Position numbers and translations under genes: made by a program | Assembly: GCA_026165385.1 (NCBI GenBank) | Contig: GCA_026165385.1_4524.2 | DNA: 49,697 nt | Source of the DNA: a phage | Direction: 5' to 3' (one strand) | Notes under the pieces: model-generated | What the model was told of the DNA's origin: nothing | The model's database searches: none | What the model saw: only the letters and a program-made list of their open reading frames with translations | Shown: piece after piece, positions 533 through 35,270 of the stretch | Numbering within the stretch: position 1 is the stretch's first letter | Layout of the letters: each line of letters starts with the position of its first letter

Positions 533-569
533 GTTTACAACACGATAGGACTATGTTATAGTAGTCCTA
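533..569 (+). promoter_or_regulatory. Early promoter with stem-loop (PeSL-type cassette)
   Basis: GTTTAC 533-538; inverted repeat TAGGACTA (546-553) / TAGTCCTA (562-569) flanking a TGTTATAGT -10; near-identical copies at 8209, 9504 and 19744. Confidence 0.5.
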
Positions 570-599
570 TCAAAACAAATGAGTAAATGGAGAAATAAA

Positions 600-6108: not shown

Positions 6109-6711
6109 ATGCGAAACCAAAATAATGATATTGACTCAATGTTCGAAGAGTTCCGAGATAAGGTAAATCCACCTACGTCTTTAGTTGATTCATTACGATA
6201 TGTTGCAACTGGGCGTAAATGGTGCTGGTCAGCTTCTTATGAGACCACTGAGAAAACGGCTAGCCATAGCAGAAAATCTTTATTAGCCCCAGGTATTATG
6301 ATTCATGATATCGGAGCTATTGCTAAACTAGTTGCAGACCATGATATTAGATTCACTGATTTCGTTGCTCCTACGTGGTCTGTTTGTTGTTTAAACACTG
6401 AATGGGAATATATCAGCGAACGTTCAGAAGATTATTATGGTTTTAGAGATAAGCTTCTGAGGTCTAATATGTTTTATATCGACACAGAAGTTCTAGTCGA
6501 TAATAAAAAATATTACTTTACGTTAATCGTCGATTCTGAAACTATGTATGAAGGCAAGCCTTTGCTTAAAAGAGTTGATGCTTTAAGTGCTATTGATGCG
6601 CTTTATGAAACTATGGTTGTTAGTCCTAATTTCACTAACAATTTAATCCTTGAGCAATTTATTATGGAATGTAGAGAATATGTCAAAGCCAACCCTGTAC
6701 ATGCCAATTAA
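6109..6711 (+). CDS. Hypothetical protein, 200 aa; C-terminal region contains an FIMECR motif
   Basis: ATG at 6109 after SD AAAGGAG (track ORF starts at a TTG at 6088); FIMECREY near the C-terminus resembles the tail motif of the downstream membrane proteins. Confidence 0.6.
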   Translation: MRNQNNDIDSMFEEFRDKVNPPTSLVDSLRYVATGRKWCWSASYETTEKTASHSRKSLLAPGIMIHDIGAIAKLVADHDIRFTDFVAPTWSVCCLNTEWEYISERSEDYYGFRDKLLRSNMFYIDTEVLVDNKKYYFTLIVDSETMYEGKPLLKRVDALSAIDALYETMVVSPNFTNNLILEQFIMECREYVKANPVHAN

Positions 6712-7075
6712 GCCCTGGGCATACGAATACAAACGTAAATTAATCCCAAACGAAGTACTATTTGGCCCTATTTTAGCTTTAGCATTTTTAATCTTTATGA
6801 TTATAGGAGCTATTTTAGATTCCAATAAAGTTATATCGTCTGATGCAGCGTTTTCATTAATGTTCGTCGCACCACTTATTGTACCGTTTTTATTAATGCC
6901 TATTAATTGGGTAGGATATTGGCACCAAGGCCGTCATCACAGAGCCCGATTAAGAGAATGGAAAGTTCAGTGCGCAAAAGCCCAAGCTCAGTATGATGAA
7001 GCTGTTAAAAAGTATGAATATGAAGAAGCTATGGAATTCGTTAAGGAAATAAGATGCAAAAGCCTCAACTCTTAA
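6680..7075 (+). CDS. Small membrane protein, 131 aa (start uncertain, alternative 6701)
   Basis: ATG at 6680 lies directly after the conserved GAATGTAGAGAAT junction motif; two hydrophobic helices; overlaps the upstream gene. Confidence 0.5.
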   Translation: MSKPTLYMPIKPWAYEYKRKLIPNEVLFGPILALAFLIFMIIGAILDSNKVISSDAAFSLMFVAPLIVPFLLMPINWVGYWHQGRHHRARLREWKVQCAKAQAQYDEAVKKYEYEEAMEFVKEIRCKSLNS

Positions 7076-7413
7076 CCGTATGGCCGTCTCTTGGTGAGAA
7101 TATTCTAATTTTTATTATGAGTATTGGCATGGGATTTGCCTTTGGATTAGTTGGATTTCTTATTGACGGAGTTGTGTTAGGATTTATAGGGAATACCGGT
7201 GGATTCACAGACCAATGGCAGGACTTACGGTATACCCAAGCCTTTGCATCCATCGCATCATTTTGTACTGTAGTCTATTTTTACTACGATTTTATAAACC
7301 ATAACAAGAAAAATAAAAAGGTTTACGCTTCTCAAATGATTAGTTATAATGAACTCCTAGCTAAACGTGAAAATGAAACAATCGAAAACTTTATTAAGGA
7401 ATGTAGAAAATGA
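7054..7413 (+). CDS. Small membrane protein, 119 aa, C-terminal NFIKECRK tail
   Basis: SD AAGGAAATAAG before ATG 7054; hydrophobic helices; the C-terminal motif is shared with the ORFs at 9562 and 10637. Confidence 0.6.
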   Translation: MQKPQLLTVWPSLGENILIFIMSIGMGFAFGLVGFLIDGVVLGFIGNTGGFTDQWQDLRYTQAFASIASFCTVVYFYYDFINHNKKNKKVYASQMISYNELLAKRENETIENFIKECRK

Positions 7414-7715
7414 GTAAGATTATTGAAATTAAAGTACCAGAGTTTAATGATGCCAAATCTGCTTCAGATGCAATTTATAAACTTCTGAATCAAGCTGAAC
7501 GTATCGAAGAAGAAGCAACAAAGATCGCAGACCAATATGCAGTATCGTTTTCTGTAGGTGATTATGGTAGCGGTCGTACTTATTATCCTAAGGGTGAAAT
7601 CGTATCCCAGTGGATGAAAGATGAAATTGAAAATAATGGTGGCGATGTTAAGCGTGAAGGTAATGGTTACGTTATTACTGAAGGTGCTTGGGTTTCGTCT
7701 TCTGCGTTGTGCTAA
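7410..7715 (+). CDS. Small protein, 101 aa, C-terminus GAWVSSSALC (tandem paralog 1 of 3)
   Basis: ATGA overlap with the upstream gene; the C-terminal WVSSS..C motif is shared with the next two ORFs. Confidence 0.6.
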   Translation: MSKIIEIKVPEFNDAKSASDAIYKLLNQAERIEEEATKIADQYAVSFSVGDYGSGRTYYPKGEIVSQWMKDEIENNGGDVKREGNGYVITEGAWVSSSALC

Positions 7716-7724
7716 GGAATCATT

Positions 7725-7997
7725 ATGTCTAAAGAACAAACCGAACTGGCTGAAGCTGTAGCAAAAATCTATGCAGCTATTGAGGCTGCCAAAGAAATTG
7801 CTGATAAACAAAACACAACATTCGACTTGTATCCAGCTTATGGTATGGGTGGAACCTATCATTCACCCGGACATCTTAAAGCCGATCTTGAACGTTGTAC
7901 AAAAAACGGCTATGCTGAATGGGCTGACGTTTACCAATACGACTACAACTTGAGCCTTGAAGACGGCGGTTGGGTTGCATCTTCTCACACTTGTTAA
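7725..7997 (+). CDS. Small protein, 90 aa, C-terminus GGWVASSHTC (tandem paralog 2 of 3)
   Basis: SD TAAGGAATCATT before the ATG; alanine-rich N-terminal helix and shared C-terminal motif. Confidence 0.6.
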   Translation: MSKEQTELAEAVAKIYAAIEAAKEIADKQNTTFDLYPAYGMGGTYHSPGHLKADLERCTKNGYAEWADVYQYDYNLSLEDGGWVASSHTC

Positions 7998-8006
7998 GGA
8001 AATCAT

Positions 8007-8204
8007 ATGTCTCGTGAATTAGACTGCGCTGTACGTACGGCAGTAGCTGCTCTGGAAAACCTGTTCCAGATTGCAACAGAAGAACGCGAAGAAGTTACAT
8101 TATGGATTGAAGATAACGCAGGTCTGAATCTCCAGGACGCGATCTCATTATCCCACAATAGTATCACTGTTCAAGGCTGGGTATCATCTAGTTATTCTTG
8201 CTAA
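8007..8204 (+). CDS. Small protein, 65 aa, C-terminus QGWVSSSYSC (tandem paralog 3 of 3)
   Basis: SD TAAGGAAATCAT before the ATG, near-identical to the previous intergenic junction; shared C-terminal motif. Confidence 0.6.
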   Translation: MSRELDCAVRTAVAALENLFQIATEEREEVTLWIEDNAGLNLQDAISLSHNSITVQGWVSSSYSC

Positions 8205-8208
8205 AACA

Positions 8209-8246
8209 GTTTACAACAAGATAGGGCTATGTTATAGTAGTCCTAT
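8209..8246 (+). promoter_or_regulatory. Early promoter with stem-loop (PeSL-type cassette)
   Basis: GTTTAC 8209-8214; inverted repeat TAGGGCTA / TAGTCCTA around TGTTATAGT; near copy of the element at 533. Confidence 0.5.
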
Positions 8247-8266
8247 CAAAACAAATGGAGTCCACA

Positions 8267-8506
8267 ATGATTTATTACGAAAGTATCGGAACCAAAGTGG
8301 TTGGTAAAACCATTACTCGTGAAAAGTTTGCAAAGATATTCGATATGCGTTATAAAAAATCTGAACACAAAGGCATCCGATTCGAAGATGCGCACTGTAC
8401 AATTTGTCCTTATAATGAAGACATAAACGGTACAATCGTTCCATTGGTAGAGGCTTCACATGATGACCTCTGGGATGAATATAATATCGCATGTCGTGAA
8501 ATTTAA
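8267..8506 (+). CDS. Hypothetical protein, 79 aa (alternative start 8255)
   Basis: ATG at 8267 follows GGAG; the upstream ATG at 8255 lies inside the ATGGAG SD-like sequence and has no SD of its own. Confidence 0.5.
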   Translation: MIYYESIGTKVVGKTITREKFAKIFDMRYKKSEHKGIRFEDAHCTICPYNEDINGTIVPLVEASHDDLWDEYNIACREI

Positions 8507-8534
8507 GTTAATGAATTAATCCGAGGAAAATATT

Positions 8535-9491
8535 ATGATGTTAGTTATTGGTTCTCGTGCACTTCACTATCATGGTCTTATTGATTCTAACGCTATCAAA
8601 AATAGTGATTGGGACTTTATTGCGGACCAATGTTCTTGGAATGCATTCAAAAATCAAATGATGGGTGTATATGTCCACCAAGATAACCCTGATGTCCAAG
8701 TTTTCAAATGCTTCCATAATGGACGCGAAACTCATTTTGAAGCATATATTGTTCCGGCAATCACTAATGTCCGTGAATTAGTTGGTGAACTCACTCCTGA
8801 AGATTTCACGTCTTCTTATGACCTTTTAAAATACGCCAAGAAAAATTTGACTAAAGATCGTTTGAACGGGTTTTACTGGGCAACTCCTGAGATATGTCTT
8901 GCAATTAAGATGTCTCATCGTTTCAAGAAAAATAATCCATTCTTTTTAAAGACTATGAACCATATTCAGTATCTTCGTGGTAAAGGTGTTACACTGAACG
9001 ATGAACTTACTGAAATTATGCTGAAACGTCAGAAAGAAACCTTGAATTATGCTCACCCGGTTCTTGACACTTCTAAAAGTGCGTTCTTTAAAGATGACAT
9101 CTATACATATGACCATGATACCATTCATGAAGCCATTGCACTAACAGACCGTCCAGCGTATACATTTTATATGAAAGATGGTTCTGAAGTCATGACCTCA
9201 CGCGAGAAGTTCGAATCATTACCAGAAATGGTCAAATTGGCCGGCGTATACGAAGAATCATGTGTACTAGCGTTAGAACGTTCTCAGATTCCTAATAACT
9301 TTGAAATCCATCCACGTGATAGTTTTATGATGGCCCTTGAAAAGGTCTGTACATCAATCACATCAGGATGGTTCCGTGAGTTCGCTTGGGAAAACTACAG
9401 CAAAGTAGTAAGTATGTACCAAAGCTTGGGACATGACGATTACGTCAAACGTTTCAAACAAAATTTCCATATGGTAAAACCTTTCAAATAA
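8535..9491 (+). CDS. Hypothetical protein, 318 aa, possible nucleotidyltransferase fold
   Basis: SD GAGGAAAA; N-terminus MMLVIGSRALHYHGL...SDWDF loosely fits the Pol-beta-type nucleotidyltransferase G[GS]...D.D signature; N-terminus resembles the ORF at 21099. Confidence 0.6.
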   Translation: MMLVIGSRALHYHGLIDSNAIKNSDWDFIADQCSWNAFKNQMMGVYVHQDNPDVQVFKCFHNGRETHFEAYIVPAITNVRELVGELTPEDFTSSYDLLKYAKKNLTKDRLNGFYWATPEICLAIKMSHRFKKNNPFFLKTMNHIQYLRGKGVTLNDELTEIMLKRQKETLNYAHPVLDTSKSAFFKDDIYTYDHDTIHEAIALTDRPAYTFYMKDGSEVMTSREKFESLPEMVKLAGVYEESCVLALERSQIPNNFEIHPRDSFMMALEKVCTSITSGWFREFAWENYSKVVSMYQSLGHDDYVKRFKQNFHMVKPFK

Positions 9492-9503: not shown

Positions 9504-9541
9504 GTTTACACAATTATAGGACTATGTTATAGTAGTCCTAT
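9504..9541 (+). promoter_or_regulatory. Early promoter with stem-loop (PeSL-type cassette)
   Basis: GTTTAC 9504-9509; inverted repeat TAGGACTA / TAGTCCTA around -10; copy of the element at 533. Confidence 0.5.
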
Positions 9542-9561: not shown

Positions 9562-9867
9562 ATGAAATTAACAGAAACCAATCGAATTGGTCTTTTAACA
9601 ATACTTGCATCACCTTTTTACGCAACTCTTTCTGTTGCAGTATTACAAAAGGCTTACAGTATGGATGGTGTTCCTGGTTGTATATTTTTATCACCATTTT
9701 TGCTATTCGTTGGAGCTTTGTTATTATATGCCACGTCTGGTTTCGACCATAATGTCTGGGTCAATTATAAACGTAAATTGTCCGAAGAAGAACACGCAGA
9801 AGCTCGTAAAAAAGCTATTGAATCTACCAATCTAGAAAATTTCATTAAAGAATGTCGAGGAAAATAA
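9562..9867 (+). CDS. Small membrane protein, 101 aa, C-terminal NFIKECRGK tail
   Basis: SD GAGGAG; two hydrophobic helices; shared C-terminal motif. Confidence 0.6.
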   Translation: MKLTETNRIGLLTILASPFYATLSVAVLQKAYSMDGVPGCIFLSPFLLFVGALLLYATSGFDHNVWVNYKRKLSEEEHAEARKKAIESTNLENFIKECRGK

Positions 9868-9868
9868 T

Positions 9869-10555
9869 ATGAATAGTTCTAAAGTGTTTAATAGTCAAGC
9901 TCGTGCAGTAGGTGGTTTTGCTCATGCTATTAAAAACGACCAGATTAAAAACGAGCCTATGTTCTTCAACTGTAGTTTAGAATTTGCTTATAATAACGGC
10001 GGTCCTATTACTCGCAGCTTCATCATGAACTTGCCGGATGATTGGAACACCGACCAGGTTGTATTTGATTCACGAGTCCACATGCTGATGCCTGGCTGGT
10101 ACCCTGCTATTCCTGGATATCACCATGACGATGTTCCACGCCCTGATATTCCAGTTGGTCAACACTTTATTACTGCAGGACAACCTGACTATGACAACCC
10201 TCGTTACCATTCTGAACATATTCTTGGTCTTGTTAACGCTGATGTGTGTCCTACTCATTTTGCAACAGGAACTGCAGAGTTCAGTCAGATTCCTGATGGC
10301 GAACTTATCTATCGCCAGTGGCACAAAGAAGTCCTCGAAAAAATCGAAAAAGGTGAACTAGAGAAATGGGAAGCTCCAGACCGTACTCTTCTTCAGTTTG
10401 ATTGGCAAACATGGCACACTGGTTCTCGTGCAATTAGTAACGGATGGCGTTGGTTCGGACGTGTATCTCGTAATACAGACCGAGTTAAAAAGATTACCAA
10501 TGAAATTCGTGTCAATGCCCAAGTTTATCTGGAATTCCCTATGGAAGGCTGGTAA
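9869..10555 (+). CDS. Hypothetical protein, 228 aa
   Basis: ATG directly after the conserved junction motif GAATGTCGAGGAAAATAAT; Trp/His-rich, no recognised domain. Confidence 0.65.
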   Translation: MNSSKVFNSQARAVGGFAHAIKNDQIKNEPMFFNCSLEFAYNNGGPITRSFIMNLPDDWNTDQVVFDSRVHMLMPGWYPAIPGYHHDDVPRPDIPVGQHFITAGQPDYDNPRYHSEHILGLVNADVCPTHFATGTAEFSQIPDGELIYRQWHKEVLEKIEKGELEKWEAPDRTLLQFDWQTWHTGSRAISNGWRWFGRVSRNTDRVKKITNEIRVNAQVYLEFPMEGW

Positions 10556-10636: not shown

Positions 10637-11035
10637 GTGAAACATATTTGCCAAGAATTTAAAATCAACCAGCCAGCAGGTATTATCGTGAACAGATACA
10701 TTAATGGATATCAACCTATCGATGAAGTAATACGAACAACTCAAGCTGAGCTTGAAAAGTTTTTCAATAAGTGCCAATGGATAACAGGATGGATTATATT
10801 TGTACCGTCAGTGTGGTTTTTTAGTACTAAAGTAAGTGCCTTTGCCATACTAGATATTATCGCTATCTTATTAGCATCTACTATCGTAAGTATAATTGGC
10901 GGTATAATTGGTGGAGGTACTGTAGGCATCATTATTAATCTTGTTAAAAGTAGTTTACAAGAACATAAAGACAAGATAAAAGCCAAGAATAATGAAGTTG
11001 AACGTTTTATTACCGAATGCAGGAATTTGAGATGA
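10637..11035 (+). CDS. Small membrane protein, 132 aa, C-terminal RFITECRNLR tail; apparent GTG start
   Basis: The ORF has no in-frame ATG; GTG at 10637 without a clear SD; hydrophobic helices and Gly-rich GGIIGGGTVG segment. Confidence 0.4.
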   Translation: MKHICQEFKINQPAGIIVNRYINGYQPIDEVIRTTQAELEKFFNKCQWITGWIIFVPSVWFFSTKVSAFAILDIIAILLASTIVSIIGGIIGGGTVGIIINLVKSSLQEHKDKIKAKNNEVERFITECRNLR

Positions 11036-19743: not shown

Positions 19744-19780
19744 TTTACATCTTGGTAGGACTATGTTATAGTAGTCCTAC
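19744..19780 (+). promoter_or_regulatory. Early promoter with stem-loop (PeSL-type cassette)
   Basis: GTTTAC 19744-19749; inverted repeat GTAGGACTA / TAGTCCTAC around TGTTATAGT; copy of the element at 533. Confidence 0.5.
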
Positions 19781-20628: not shown

Positions 20629-21102
20629 ATGATTATCAATGAAAACTCTTGGCACTTTAAAATTTATGCCGCGTTTAATAGTACATGGAATCGTCCGAAA
20701 ACGTTGTGTGCTTATTTTTGGAAAACGTTTCTCCCGGTATTGTTTGTTTCGATTATTGGATTTGCGATTTTAGCAGCGGCCACAATCGTTGGCCAGGAAA
20801 TTTTAACTAAATTCTTTGTCTTTAGTAGTTTATGGACATTAGTTCCGGCCTCAATTGGTGTAGGTGTTTTATTCATTGCATTATGTGTTGGTATTTCTAT
20901 AGTTTTAGTATTAGGCATACCGTGGCTAATCGACTTATACAGAGAGCGGAAGTATTATAAAGAAGTTGAGCTCATTGCACAAAACCAAGAACGAATTAAA
21001 AATGGACTTGAGCCTATTGAACGTAAGAAATCATTAATAGGTGAATACCTTAAAGCTCGTAAAGAAAAAGTCTGTCCTACTCTTGAATATAAGGCTAAAT
21101 GA
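20629..21102 (+). CDS. Membrane protein, 157 aa
   Basis: SD AAGGAA; several hydrophobic helices then a charged C-terminal tail. Confidence 0.6.
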   Translation: MIINENSWHFKIYAAFNSTWNRPKTLCAYFWKTFLPVLFVSIIGFAILAAATIVGQEILTKFFVFSSLWTLVPASIGVGVLFIALCVGISIVLVLGIPWLIDLYRERKYYKEVELIAQNQERIKNGLEPIERKKSLIGEYLKARKEKVCPTLEYKAK

Positions 21103-22088
21103 TGAAAACAATTGTGAAAACTTACTTTGGTAGCCACCTTTATGGAACGTCTACTCCTGAATCTGACGTCGATTTTAAAGAAATTTATGTCCCTCATGCT
21201 CGTGATATCTTGACCGGTAACGTTAAAGAACACATGAGCAAGAACACGAATAACACATCTTCTAAGAACACAAAAGACGACGTAGACCATGAGTTGTATA
21301 GTCTCAAATATTTCTTTAAACTAGCTGCGGATGGTGAAACCGTCGCATTAGATATGCTTCACACTCCACAAAGTCTAGTAGTTAAATCTGATTTGCCTGA
21401 CGTGTGGAAGTATATTCAAGATAACAGGTCTCGTTTCTATACCACTAACATGAAATCTTATTTAGGGTATGTCCGTAAGCAAGCTTCTAAATACGGTGTC
21501 AAGGGTTCTCGACTGGCTGTTCTTCGTCAAGCCCTTAAACGTTCTAATGAATGGGGACAATACTTTGATAATGGCGCAGTAATTCGTTTATCACATATGA
21601 AGAATGTTCTGCCTGTAGGTGAATTTGCTTCGTGGGTTGAAACCGAAAACGAGAAAACAGGTAAGCAAACATTCTATAATCTGTTAGATCGTAAATTCCA
21701 AGATACGTTAACCAATAAAGAGTTCAATGCCATCCTGGTTAAACTTGAAGAGAACTATGGTGAACGTGCTCGTAAGGCAGAAGCTAACGAAGGTATTGAC
21801 TGGAAAGCATTGAGTCATGCATGTCGTGGTGGACTTCAATTATTGGAAATTTACAAAACCGGTGACTTGGTTTACCCGCTTCAGGATGCTCCATTTATTC
21901 TCGATGTTAAGCTTGGTAAACATACGTTTAAAACCGTACAGGAATTCCTAGAAGATATCGTTGACCAAGTTGAACATGCAGCAGAACAAGCTGCTAAGAA
22001 CGGTATGCAACAAAAAGTAGATATGAGTTTCTGGGATGACTTCCTTGAACAAGTCTACTTAGAAAACCACAATTCGTACTATAAATGA
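21099..22088 (+). CDS. Nucleotidyltransferase-fold protein, 329 aa
   Basis: N-terminus MMKTIVKTYFGSHLYGTSTPESDVDFKEIYVP fits the Pol-beta-type NTase signature (GS...D.D); ATGA overlap with the upstream gene. Confidence 0.65.
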   Translation: MMKTIVKTYFGSHLYGTSTPESDVDFKEIYVPHARDILTGNVKEHMSKNTNNTSSKNTKDDVDHELYSLKYFFKLAADGETVALDMLHTPQSLVVKSDLPDVWKYIQDNRSRFYTTNMKSYLGYVRKQASKYGVKGSRLAVLRQALKRSNEWGQYFDNGAVIRLSHMKNVLPVGEFASWVETENEKTGKQTFYNLLDRKFQDTLTNKEFNAILVKLEENYGERARKAEANEGIDWKALSHACRGGLQLLEIYKTGDLVYPLQDAPFILDVKLGKHTFKTVQEFLEDIVDQVEHAAEQAAKNGMQQKVDMSFWDDFLEQVYLENHNSYYK

Positions 22089-26580: not shown

Positions 26581-26608
26581 GAATCTATCTTAACGAGAGG
26601 AAAATATT

Positions 26609-27556
26609 ATGACACGTTCACATTACATTGAATACTTTGCAGGTCTTATCGCTAACGCTCACGCTCAACGTGCTACTGGTGCTTGGACTGATGTTCCACA
26701 TAAAGGTGTGGTTTATAGTATTCTTCGTGATTTTCTTACATACACAGGCCAAGAAAATCATATCTGTAAAGATACCCAAAATGCATATTCTCATTCATTA
26801 GGGACGCTGCTTCAATGGTTCAAACGTTCTCGTTTATTATCTTCTACTGTAGCTCGCGATAACATTAAAAACTTTATGAAGCCGAGCTTTATTAAATCTG
26901 TGACATCTAAAACCGATTTGGTTGAATTCACTATTGTTAATGATGTTAAAAAGACTCATTTGGCTGATTGGTTATCTACCATTCCTGAAACTAAATTTGC
27001 TGATAAATTTGCTTGTGAATTCAATAACCAAGTGAATATGCTTTTTAAACATTCACGTAAATTATTCACAGGCGGCGATGATCGTACAAATAAAGTTCAT
27101 GTTAAAGATTGGGTTACTGCAGTATTCAAACCAACTGGTAATGGTAACGCATCATTATCAATTGATATCCAGGTTCCTTATTACTACTCACGTAATCTCG
27201 GCACCATGAAAGCCGAAGAAATTAAGAAGCACAATAAAACCGTTCGTTCGCTGTCTTATAAACTTCGCATGATGTTAAGAATCATGGATGTGGTAGAAAT
27301 GCACAGTGAAACCGAAGATAACGGTTCGATGTTATTCAGTTCTCGCATTCAAATTAAGTTGAAGAACCCTAATACATATAAACCTAAGTCTATTAAAGAG
27401 CCTAAAGCAGAAAAAGTTGATAACTTAAGAGAAGAACGCGAATATCTCAAATCTCGTCTGAAAGAAGTCGAAGCCCAGATTGCAGAACAAACTAAATCGT
27501 TAAAAGCTCTGAATGCGAAAGCGGATGGTTTACGAAATGCCATTGAGGTGTTATAA
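26609..27556 (+). CDS. Hypothetical protein with C-terminal coiled coil, 315 aa
   Basis: SD GAGAGGAAAA; C-terminal segment EEREYLKSRLKEVEAQIAEQTKSLKALNAK is coiled-coil-like. Confidence 0.65.
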   Translation: MTRSHYIEYFAGLIANAHAQRATGAWTDVPHKGVVYSILRDFLTYTGQENHICKDTQNAYSHSLGTLLQWFKRSRLLSSTVARDNIKNFMKPSFIKSVTSKTDLVEFTIVNDVKKTHLADWLSTIPETKFADKFACEFNNQVNMLFKHSRKLFTGGDDRTNKVHVKDWVTAVFKPTGNGNASLSIDIQVPYYYSRNLGTMKAEEIKKHNKTVRSLSYKLRMMLRIMDVVEMHSETEDNGSMLFSSRIQIKLKNPNTYKPKSIKEPKAEKVDNLREEREYLKSRLKEVEAQIAEQTKSLKALNAKADGLRNAIEVL

Positions 27557-34906: not shown

Positions 34907-34937
34907 GTTGGATAATAAAATAACCGAGGAAAATAAT

Positions 34938-35270
34938 ATGTCTACTAAAATCAAAAACGTAGTTAATTCTTTCGCTTTCGATAAAGTTGTTGCTCTTCTG
35001 GAATCCGGCAATATTGTTACTCCTCAAGTTCTTGACGCGTGGGAATTCCGTCTTTATGAAATCATGCAAAAACACGACCAGAAAATTGGACGTAATTCTA
35101 TTCGCGAAATTCTAGTACAATATATTCTTTCTGAATTTGACGTTGCTGCATTTGGTGTTGAATCTAAAGCTTATCAGAAACATGAAATCTCTGAAAAGAC
35201 TATCCGTCGTATGAAAAATCAACGTAAGAAAAAATTCGTTGACCTGAAAATTGTTAAGGCGGTAAAATGA
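34938..35270 (+). CDS. Hypothetical protein, 110 aa
   Basis: ATG at 34938 after SD GAGGAAAATAAT. Confidence 0.55.
   Translation: MSTKIKNVVNSFAFDKVVALLESGNIVTPQVLDAWEFRLYEIMQKHDQKIGRNSIREILVQYILSEFDVAAFGVESKAYQKHEISEKTIRRMKNQRKKKFVDLKIVKAVK

Follow-up and report, generated by a model that had tools for sequence, protein, structure and literature searches.

A virus-borne nucleotidyltransferase family remotely related to AbiEii/MenT and its upstream array of small acidic proteins

The nucleotidyltransferase gene and its early cassette

The DNA analysed here (the window) is a stretch of 49,697 nucleotides from a T4-like E. coli phage, and the gene under study occupies 8535..9491 on the plus strand, within the hypervariable region that separates the tRNA genes from nudE/e. 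Its open reading frame encodes 318 residues, begins with MMLVIGSRALHYHGLIDSNAIKNSDWDF, and has a GAGG Shine-Dalgarno sequence 8 nt upstream of the start; the same gene is an annotated CDS in Bas46 and in more than 100 Mosigvirus genomes. It is preceded by an 83-aa ORF at 8255..8506 (+; PHROG 3723), which is not conserved beside the nucleotidyltransferase (NTase) gene beyond the T4-like phages, and this in turn by a T4-type early promoter with a stem-loop at 8210..8246 (+; TTTACA-N17-TATAGT, with an extended -10 TG), which resembles the PeSLs described in PMC2839356 and PMC4122927. A second PeSL-like copy of the early promoter, at 9505..9541 (+), closes a cassette of approximately 1.3 kb; an exact 20-mer, CTATGTTATAGTAGTCCTAT, is found at 551, 8227, 9522 and 19761, where 0 occurrences are expected by chance. 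Judging from its sequence, the promoter at 8210..8246 is predicted to drive both the 83-aa ORF, as first gene of the transcription unit, and the NTase gene, which would make the latter an early gene.

Two Pfam domains account for most of the protein: DUF7277 at residues 2-101 (8538..8837; E 1.5e-27, 96.6 bits), which is the N-terminal NTase core, and DUF7275 at residues 120-305 (8892..9449; E 3.2e-79, 265.6 bits), which is an all-helical C-terminal domain, the cutoff being 27 bits. PHROG 2141 matches across positions 1-318 (E 3.3e-150). In an alignment of 53 homologs of this long form, with 47-76% identity to the window protein, the catalytic residues G6-S7 (8550-8555), D25 and D27 of the D25-W-D27 (DxD) motif (8607-8615) and E69 (8739-8741) are invariant in 53/53 sequences. 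The helical domain is more conserved than the NTase core. It includes a candidate motif III, K125-x-S-H128-R129 (8907-8921), of which K125 is invariant among the 53 homologs; the invariant columns of D193-H-D-x-x-H198 (9111-9128); E240, E241, E248 and R249; and two cysteines, C243 (9261-9263) and C272 (9348-9350), that are invariant in the long form and found only there. A short form of the protein, described below, lacks both cysteines; K125, S127, H128, K139, H194 and H198 are invariant in it too.

An AlphaFold2 model of the 318-residue protein (pLDDT 92.7, pTM 0.87) places G6-S7 at the junction of strand 1 (2-5) and helix 1 (6-12), D25-x-D27 at the opening of strand 2 (26-31), and E69 in the middle of the strand at 64-73; as modelled, GS, DxD and a third carboxylate adopt the canonical Pol-beta NTase arrangement. 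The product of 8535-9491 is a Pol-beta-superfamily nucleotidyltransferase with its catalytic triad intact, and the phage enzyme is apparently active. The earlier note had read an NTase-like N-terminus from a GS followed by a DxD near the start, and this reading is upheld by the invariance of the triad and by short-form relatives that pass the AbiEii gathering score. The gap of 17 residues that it gave between S7 and D25 is also correct, as compared with x9-13 quoted for the AbiEii-type motif I; this part of the alignment contains insertions and deletions, so the longer spacing is consistent with a variable loop. A match to NTP_transf_2 or a related profile, to which the earlier note had looked for support, was not obtained: the window protein matches DUF7277 and DUF7275, and none of the NTase models of Pfam, NCBIfam and PADLOC (E up to 10 or 1), nor the aminoglycoside/lincosamide NTase and AbiE HMMs. 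Among the 53 long-form homologs the Polbeta model gave a single match, with E 0.098, and searching the PDB by sequence, with the protein itself and with a profile of each of the two forms, returned nothing relevant.

The same note had proposed that the protein is a paralog of the ORF at 21099..22088, and the two lengths that it compared, 318 and 329 aa, are accurate. Paralogy itself does not survive comparison. The best BLASTP alignment of the two has E 5.8 over 9 residues, hhalign gives a probability of 0.09% (a comparison of profile with sequence, the homologs found for ORF 21099 being all at least 98% identical), and the proteins belong to separate families; ORF 21099 is assigned to RlaP (PF10127, E 6.9e-13) and PHROG 388, and the RlaP model matches it alone. 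The two proteins have at most the Pol-beta superfamily fold in common.

An array of small acidic proteins upstream

Three small acidic ORFs are situated upstream of the cassette on the same strand: the first, of 101 aa (7410..7715), ends in ...GAWVSSSALC and belongs to PHROG 899; the second, of 90 aa (7725..7997), ends in ...GGWVASSHTC and is assigned to PHROG 899 on the same basis; the third, of 65 aa (8007..8204), ends in ...QGWVSSSYSC and is recognised by PHROG 4882 and by the tail motif, W-x-S-S-x-x-C. Across 80 viral contigs, 26 of 27 NTase clusters have between one and six acidic tail-motif ORFs no more than 4.5 kb upstream. Of such ORFs, 217 share the strand of the NTase and 4 have the other orientation; all 217 lie upstream, at 0-4.3 kb. 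When neighbours were clustered by BLAST without prior bias, the small-protein family occurred at 23/27 loci and the next commonest family at 8/27, so that no other neighbour family among the 27 loci was conserved to a comparable degree. Among 42 members defined by homology, the sequences diverge except at the Trp, the Ser positions and the C-terminal Cys, which hardly vary; a structural model of the small proteins, built with AlphaFold2 from the three window paralogs, is weak (pLDDT 62).

NTase and upstream small-protein array form a conserved module in phages of Proteobacteria, and it is this linkage, across many unrelated phages, that is new. The small proteins of PHROG 899 and 4882 are unrelated to the AbiEi/MenA antitoxins, and no Pfam or PADLOC match to AbiEi/COG5340 or another antitoxin was found among the NTase neighbours. 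No fusion of NTase and small protein occurs among 63 representative matches; a different combination, DUF1190 with DUF7275 in P0054, was rejected as a genuine fusion, being confined to one 3-kb contig that looks chimeric.

The array is absent beside the NTase in actinophages, in Vibrio phage K412, in the long-form cluster of L057, L058, L061 and L083, and from the short-form NTases; giant-virus NTases probably also occur without it. In actinophages the NTase gene is instead coupled in translation to a downstream gene, whose unrelated product has about 100-130 aa (K-T-G-Y-Y...W-D-G); homology of this product to the W-x-S-S-x-x-C proteins was rejected at an hhalign probability of 0.4%. This exchange of partners parallels the diversity of MenA antitoxins (PMC11375011).

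Other features of the neighbourhood were considered as clues to function and set aside. Genes for tRNAs lie near the NTase in enterobacterial T4-likes and in 3/26 other clusters; the latter is roughly the level expected by chance, and tRNA proximity was dropped for this reason. Gordonia phage Norvs, and likewise Moby, has tRNA genes near the NTase. In several phages, genes related to NAD are located only a few kb from the NTase: NAMPT in K412 and in Moby, a Sir2-like gene in tuntematon and in a Klebsiella phage, and, in the window, NudE. RNA-repair and NAD neighbours (PNK, ligase, Metallophos, NAMPT, Sir2, Nudix) are sporadic, none being present at more than 8/27 loci.

Family range and kinship with AbiEii/MenT

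At a threshold of 90% identity the DUF7277/DUF7275 family falls into 2,242 protein clusters; it is restricted to viruses and prophages. It is present in 734 phage records, with hosts among the Proteobacteria and Actinobacteria, in the replication modules of actinobacterial prophages, and in giant viruses; its carriers include therapy-relevant phages, namely Mosigvirus, Dhakavirus, Karamvirus, Phapecoctavirus and phages of Acinetobacter and Aeromonas. We found no mention of DUF7275, DUF7277, PF23940, PF23942 or phrog_2141 in the literature searched.

The short form belongs to the same family as the window protein, with homology over its full length (hhalign 100%, E 3.8e-41), and it is the short form that connects the family with the bacterial AbiEii/MenT toxins, which modify tRNA. 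Three of its members, P0294, P0273 and P0310, exceed the gathering score of AbiEii (PF08843) with 24.5-32.7 bits, P0294 reaching 32.7 bits (E 9.6e-8), whereas neither the window protein nor any of the 53 long-form homologs matches PF08843, and PADLOC AbiE does not match the window protein. Short-form invariants are D24, D26, K66 and D85, and the spacing from Lys to the last Asp, +19, compares with +15 in MenT1 and +22 in MenT3 (PMC10435456). The similarity to solved nucleotidyltransferases is seen at the level of fold, where the nearest structures are MenT1, MenT3 (TglT) and MenT4. The family forms a distant branch of the bi-lobed NTases of AbiEii/MenT type (DUF1814).

At individual positions the correspondence is partial. 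The candidate motif III residue, K125, lies at a MenT-like distance from DxD and would be the counterpart of K137 in MenT1, a comparison of sequence spacing rather than of superposed structures. The motif IV Asp, D152 in MenT1, is invariant only in the short form, as D85; in the long form it corresponds to position 143, where the window protein has His and the 53 homologs have Asp in 28 cases, His in 20 and Thr, Ser or Gly in 5. The DUF1814 superfamily strictly conserves a Ser/Thr phospho-acceptor (T39 in MenT1, S78 in MenT3), on which control by the antitoxin rests (PMC11375011). The corresponding position here, residue 23, two before DxD, is occupied by N, C, P, V, D or K in the long form, never Ser or Thr, and by Pro in 28/30 short-form sequences.

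Possible acceptors and comparison with known systems

Our tentative preference, to which we give a probability of about 0.4, is that the enzyme transfers a nucleoside monophosphate onto the 3' end of an RNA while the small proteins dock on the helical domain. D25, D27 and E69 would bind Mg2+-NTP; K125 and H128, from the helix that opens the C-terminal lobe, would grip the phosphates in the manner of MenT1 K137; and the helical domain, through H194, D195, H198, E240, E241, E248, R249 and ten conserved Lys/Arg, would hold a macromolecular acceptor, whose hydroxyl would attack the alpha-phosphate. The RNA 3' end in question would, as with MenT, be an acceptor end resembling that of tRNA, and the lineage-specific small proteins would be regulators or adaptors on the helical domain, in the way that MenT has its diverse MenA partners. 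In favour of this reading stand the fold and invariant active site, the short-form bridge to AbiEii, the early promoter, the linkage with the small proteins and the change of partners between lineages. The distribution of the family over 734 phage records, prophages and giant viruses was counted in favour of a universal substrate. Against it, the window protein is not basic (pI 6.5; 7.2 for its C-terminal domain), tRNA genes beyond the enterobacterial T4-likes lie near the NTase about as often as chance would have it, and the motif IV Asp is replaced by His in the window protein. We lean towards a pro-viral role, for example in RNA-end maintenance or counter-defence, over a host-killing toxin, because viruses that depend on translation retain the family, because some lineages have it without partners, and because the auto-phosphorylation switch of MenT is missing.

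Strict gene order and an invariant, hydroxyl-bearing tail would fit the small proteins equally well as substrate, with a Ser or Tyr of the W-x-S-S-x-x-C tail, or of a YGxGxTYYP loop, receiving AMP, GMP, CMP or UMP; the small proteins would then be activated, tagged or further processed, and it would be they that in fact bring about host takeover or anti-defence. This is the foremost of the alternatives, though we hold it to be unlikely. The genetic linkage is very strong and directional, one to six divergent paralogs per enzyme is the pattern expected of one enzyme with many substrates, the tail is near-invariant in Trp, Ser and Cys while the rest of the 42 members diverges, and the invariant C243 and C272 of the long form are missing from the array-less short form. 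Yet the NTase occurs without small proteins in actinophages, K412, one long-form cluster and probably giant viruses, so another acceptor must exist; nor was a fusion found among the 63 representative matches, and the small-protein model is weak. Nucleotidyltransferases that act on small proteins are known: MntA AMPylates HepT, GlnD uridylylates PII, and CitX/MdcG load a Ser of a small carrier protein. These precedents would serve as an analogy.

Doubt is a little greater over a shut-off module resembling a toxin-antitoxin system, in which a MenT-like NTase would extend or block host tRNA ends early in infection and the small proteins, as cognate inhibitors, would time or restrict it in the manner of the upstream-encoded 68-aa MenA1 of MenT1. 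This would accord with the nearest solved structures being MenT1, MenT3 and MenT4, with the order of small protein then NTase as in menA1-menT1 (PMC10435456), with partner families that vary by lineage as antitoxins do (PMC11375011), and with the predicted early expression of the NTase. However, the Ser/Thr phospho-acceptor before DxD is missing, there is neither an AbiEi/COG5340-like protein nor a PADLOC AbiE match, up to six 'antitoxins' for one toxin would be unusual, the NTase is alone in some lineages, and a general poison of tRNA would harm the virus itself, be it a lytic phage or a giant virus. Quite improbable, in our estimation, is a small-molecule or nucleotide reaction, in which the enzyme would either modify a low-molecular-weight hydroxyl compound, as ANT(2'') and LnuA modify antibiotics, or make or consume a nucleotide-derived metabolite or signal, for example in NAD/ADP-ribose or defence-signal metabolism. 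The NAD-related genes a few kb away in several phages speak for this, but no such neighbour is conserved (the best non-partner family reaches 8/27 loci), no aminoglycoside/lincosamide NTase HMM matches, the small-protein array would be left unexplained, and the highly conserved helical domain, 200 aa long and rich in invariant basic residues, points to a large acceptor.

Kinship with AbiEii/MenT gives the DUF7277/DUF7275 family a testable chemistry, and it also prompts one to ask why a relative of one of the commonest anti-phage toxins should be found in viruses. The widespread 'hypothetical' small acidic ORFs gain their first functional context from the pairing with the NTase. It is conceivable, although we would not expect it, that NTase and W-x-S-S-x-x-C array constitute a previously unrecognised two-component viral system. 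In one version, the enzyme may nucleotidylylate or process the Ser-Ser-x-x-Cys tail, yielding modified effector proteins. In the other, the system may provide counter-defence against tRNA-tailing immunity of the AbiE/MenT type, which is abundant; its helix-rich small proteins may mimic mini-antitoxins against host DUF1814 toxins, while the NTase may restore or protect tRNA 3' ends.

Among known systems, the resemblance to MenT/AbiEii is the most extensive. Both are bi-lobed, with the sheet of a minimal Pol-beta NTase at the N-terminus and a helical C-terminal lobe, and both have a DxD on strand 2; K125, invariant, some 98 residues further on and within the helix that opens the C-terminal lobe, is a candidate counterpart of MenT1 K137; the short-form relatives pass the PF08843 threshold and retain a motif-IV-like Asp, and, as in MenA1-MenT1, a small protein is encoded upstream of the NTase (PMC10435456). 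Unlike the MenT/AbiEii type, the window NTase has a canonical third carboxylate, E69, and a His at the motif IV position, and it carries approximately 140 further helical residues that are extremely conserved; moreover, the family resides in lytic phages, prophage replication modules and giant viruses rather than in bacterial toxin-antitoxin loci. RlaP, which is predicted to act on RNA ends (PMC7824862), is likewise a phage-encoded member of the Pol-beta superfamily of similar length with an N-terminal GS and DxD, but it belongs to other Pfam and PHROG families and has no detectable sequence or profile similarity to the NTase, and ORF 21099 is no recent paralog of it. Minimal NTases of the ANT(2'')-Ia, LnuA and TM1012 types are 156-175 aa long with far smaller C-terminal parts, have small molecules as their established or presumed targets, and show no sequence or HMM relation to the NTase. 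MntA-HepT (a type VII toxin-antitoxin system), GlnD-PII and CitX/MdcG-ACP share with the phage module the genetic pairing of a Pol-beta-fold enzyme with a small protein that has a conserved hydroxyl residue. This would be a functional analogy for the reading with the small proteins as substrate; no evidence from sequence or fold connects these systems with the family.

The nucleotidyltransferase gene and its family

The nucleotidyltransferase (NTase) of the window is a member of a widespread, uncharacterised family of viral NTases related to AbiEii/MenT. Its ORF (8535-9491, +) starts MMLVIGSRALHYHGLIDSNAIKNSDWDF, has a GAGG ribosome-binding site 8 nt 5' of it and encodes a protein of 318 aa, in which G6-S7 and D25-W-D27, with 17 residues between them, are exactly as the earlier note described. 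A database search returned 2,242 related proteins; when 53 of these, sharing 47-76% identity with the window protein, were aligned, there was no variation at G6, S7, D25, D27 or E69, a third acidic residue, which shows the predicted active site to be intact. The same alignment contains insertions and deletions between G-S and DxD, fitting a variable loop that accounts for the long spacing.

Comparison with NTP_transf_2 and related families was negative; the protein matched none of the NTase models of Pfam, NCBIfam and PADLOC, and a sequence search of the PDB gave no match. In Pfam it matches only DUF7277 (aa 2-101, E 1.5e-27) and DUF7275 (aa 120-305, E 3.2e-79), two domains to which no function is assigned, and it belongs to PHROG 2141, likewise annotated as function unknown. 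The NTase-like reading proposed in the earlier note is therefore supported not through profiles but through fold and a bridge of sequence similarity. An AlphaFold2 model built on the 53-sequence alignment (pLDDT 92.7, pTM 0.87) shows a predicted MenT-like fold, with G-S where strand 1 meets helix 1, DxD opening strand 2 and E69 midway along a strand spanning residues 64-73. Fold comparison scored highest against the MenT1 toxin 8an4 (10.0, 143 residues aligned), followed by ANT(2'') (8.6), TglT/MenT3 (8.5), MenT4 (7.8), TM1012 and 5uvd (both 7.6), JHP933 (7.4) and LnuA (7.1); Foldseek was concordant, ranking 5uvd and MenT1 at the top. The bridge is provided by short-form relatives of about 250-270 aa, found in actinophages and actinobacterial prophages, which show homology to the window protein along their entire length (hhalign probability 100%, E 3.8e-41) and of which three pass the Pfam gathering score for AbiEii (PF08843; P0294 reaches 32.7 bits, E 9.6e-8). 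The nearest known kind is thus the AbiEii/MenT (DUF1814) family, and we regard this placement of fold and family as highly probable.

The suggestion that the protein is a paralogue of that encoded at 21099-22088 (+) must be rejected: BLASTP gave an E of 5.8, and hhalign, using the profile of the window NTase family, a probability of 0.09%. The latter protein is an RlaP-family NTase (PF10127, E 6.9e-13; PHROG 388, 'nucleotidyltransferase'), a family predicted to act in RNA repair together with RNA ligases (PMC7824862), and the two have at most a superfamily fold in common. Many Mosigvirus records in GenBank and UniProt label this protein 'thioredoxin', which appears to be a propagated mis-annotation.

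The distribution of the NTase family is virus-wide. More than 100 Mosigvirus (RB69-group, T4-like) phages of E. coli and Shigella match the window at 95-99% nucleotide identity. By tblastn the NTase was found in 734 phage records, including Mosigvirus, Dhakavirus, Karamvirus, Winklervirus, Phapecoctavirus, Otagovirus, Menderavirus and the T4-likes of Aeromonas and Acinetobacter; the numbers of records per genus (260 for Escherichia) suggest that it may be missing from T4 itself. The short form is carried by Streptomyces, Gordonia and Vibrio phages, and genomic copies in Rhodococcus and Streptosporangium lie among the DnaB, primase, SSB and RNR genes of prophage replication modules. For the giant viruses Sylvanvirus (A0A3G5AJ90, 508 aa) and Satyrvirus (A0A3G5AE53, 571 aa), BFVD holds DUF7275 proteins that share the fold (TM-score about 0.7) and carry additional residues.

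An array of small proteins upstream of the gene

Just upstream of the NTase gene, three small acidic ORFs stand in tandem on the same strand, at 7410-7715, 7725-7997 and 8007-8204 (all +), ending WVSSSALC, WVASSHTC and WVSSSYSC respectively, and similar ORFs directly precede the gene for the NTase in at least five unrelated phage groups. We surveyed 10-kb flanks in 80 viral contigs with NTase homologues of 40-97% identity for ORFs of 35-200 aa ending W-x(1,2)-S-S-x(0,3)-C, among some 6,200-6,400 ORFs per strand. The NTase strand carried 217 and the opposite strand four; every one of the 217 was upstream of the NTase gene, at a distance of 0-4.3 kb, and downstream there were none. Examples are found at 2802-4893 in L002, 3785-4318 in L003, 4935-5913 in L008, 3228-5413 in L009 and 7207-7745 in L010. 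When the 80 NTases were clustered at 70% identity, 26 of 27 clusters possessed the array and one long-form (window-type) cluster had none. An all-against-all BLAST of neighbouring ORFs from 27 representatives, which is independent of the motif, recovered a single family, always upstream and present at 23 of the 27 loci, the next commonest neighbour being present in eight. Phage Moby is an exception: two copies there lie on the downstream side of the NTase gene.

The array proteins (52-172 aa; median pI 4.4, net charge -9) begin with an N-terminal helix, often followed by a YGxGxTYYP loop and then the tail, and 42 defined by homology end almost universally in W-x-x-S-[S/A/T]-x(0-3)-Cys-COOH. 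A Pfam search assigned them to no family and their PHROGs (899/4882) are of unknown function. Their counts by genus track those of the long-form NTase (Escherichia 197 versus 260, Aeromonas 57 versus 59, Enterobacter 34 versus 36), and no fusion of the two was seen among 63 representative matches. It is likely that NTase and small proteins constitute a strong module in phages of Proteobacteria, and this previously unremarked partner family makes the NTase more interesting than the earlier note suggested.

No such array was found at short-form loci. In actinophages and actinobacterial prophages the short-form gene is instead followed by one for an unrelated protein of about 100-130 aa with the motif K-T-G-Y-Y-x-S-x-G-G-x-W-D-G (L005 3399-3734, L006 3100-3393, L011 5777-6121, L013 5768-6157). 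Translation of the pair is coupled in actinophages, and the genes overlap at three of these four loci. This partner has no Pfam match and, at an hhalign probability of 0.4%, no homology with the W-x-S-S-x-x-C family.

Comparison with phage Bas46 places the NTase locus in a hypervariable region that separates the tRNA genes from nudE/e. ARAGORN found tRNA genes in the window only at 2035-2189 (anticodons CAT and TCT); in a 97%-identical phage contig it also called a 94-nt 'tRNA-Stop' (anticodon TTA; L014 4381-4474), without counterpart in the window, which may be spurious. At 8210-8246 (+) a stem-loop overlaps a T4-type early promoter (TTTACA-N17-TGTTATAGT), an arrangement repeated identically at 9505-9541 (+). 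Its 20-nt core, CTATGTTATAGTAGTCCTAT, has four copies in the window (551-570, 8227-8246, 9522-9541 and 19761-19780, all +) against none expected by chance, each inside such a promoter, and these resemble PeSLs, mobile cassettes with a regulatory role that are described from the hyperplastic regions of T4-type genomes (PMC2839356, PMC4122927). Two of them bracket an early unit of about 1.3 kb in which an 83-aa ORF (8255-8506) comes first and the NTase gene second, a position that implies early expression. Neither proximity to tRNA genes nor RNA-repair and NAD-metabolism neighbours was upheld as a functional clue.

Small predicted membrane proteins encoded nearby (7054-7413, 9562-9867 and 10637-11035, and also 6650-7075; all +) end in F-I-[K/T]-E-C-R-x(1-3) (FIKECRK, FIKECRGK, FITECRNLR). 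A translation-initiation cassette, CGAGGAAAATAWTATG, is repeated at 8522-8537, 9856-9871, 26596-26611 and 34925-34940, and at least for 9562-9867 the tail overlaps the cassette, which serves the following gene; conservation of the tail may therefore reflect conservation of the cassette at the nucleotide level. A 228-aa ORF (9869-10555, +), two genes downstream from that for the NTase, is rich in His, Asp and Trp (GYHHDD...), with no Pfam match and membership of PHROG 1843 (function unknown).

The proposed acceptor and role of the partners

The helical domain of the NTase, in which conservation exceeds that of the catalytic core, has ten conserved Lys/Arg and a cluster of His/Asp residues; H194, D195 and H198 are conserved in both long and short forms, and H128 lies one helical turn from K125. 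Reading this cluster as an HD phosphohydrolase was considered and not upheld. We infer a mechanism in which an NMP would be moved from an NTP to a hydroxyl acceptor gripped by the large helical domain. The acceptor would be universal, because the NTase occurs without small proteins in actinophages, in one long-form cluster and probably in giant viruses, and because its partners vary by lineage, as do the MenA antitoxins of MenT. It would most likely be an RNA 3' end, for example that of a tRNA acceptor stem, and the small proteins would dock on the NTase as regulators or adaptors, a reading to which we assign a probability of roughly 0.4. We lean towards pro-viral maintenance or counter-defence rather than a toxin, as the family lacks the auto-phosphorylation switch of MenT and has been retained by viruses dependent on translation.

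Its main rival makes the W-x-S-S-x-x-C tail itself the acceptor, which would account both for multi-copy arrays and for an invariant, hydroxyl-bearing tail; we consider this unlikely, given those NTases that have no such tail beside them. Slightly less likely again is a toxin-antitoxin-like module for host shut-off. That the NTase modifies a small molecule seems improbable.

Comparison with AbiEii and MenT

NTases of the DUF1814 type are characterised by four motifs together with a Ser/Thr of regulatory function (T39, D41xD43, K137 and D152 in MenT1), this phospho-acceptor being strictly conserved throughout the superfamily (PMC10435456, PMC11375011). The window protein shares motifs I and II, though with a spacing of x17. 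An invariant Lys, K125, about 98 residues past DxD in the first helix of the C-terminal lobe, is a candidate for motif III. The protein differs in having His at the position of motif IV, where the 53 homologues have Asp (28), His (20) or Thr/Ser/Gly (5), and the phospho-acceptor position is occupied by Asn, Cys, Pro or Val in the long form and by Pro in the short form. No AbiEi-like antitoxin was found near the NTase gene. The short form has lost the strand bearing E69 and has an invariant Asp, D85, 19 residues after the Lys; from these residues, the long form would appear to use a canonical D-D-E triad and the short form a DUF1814-style Asp. Given these matches and departures, we place the family as a sister of AbiEii/MenT rather than within it, probably working like MenT.
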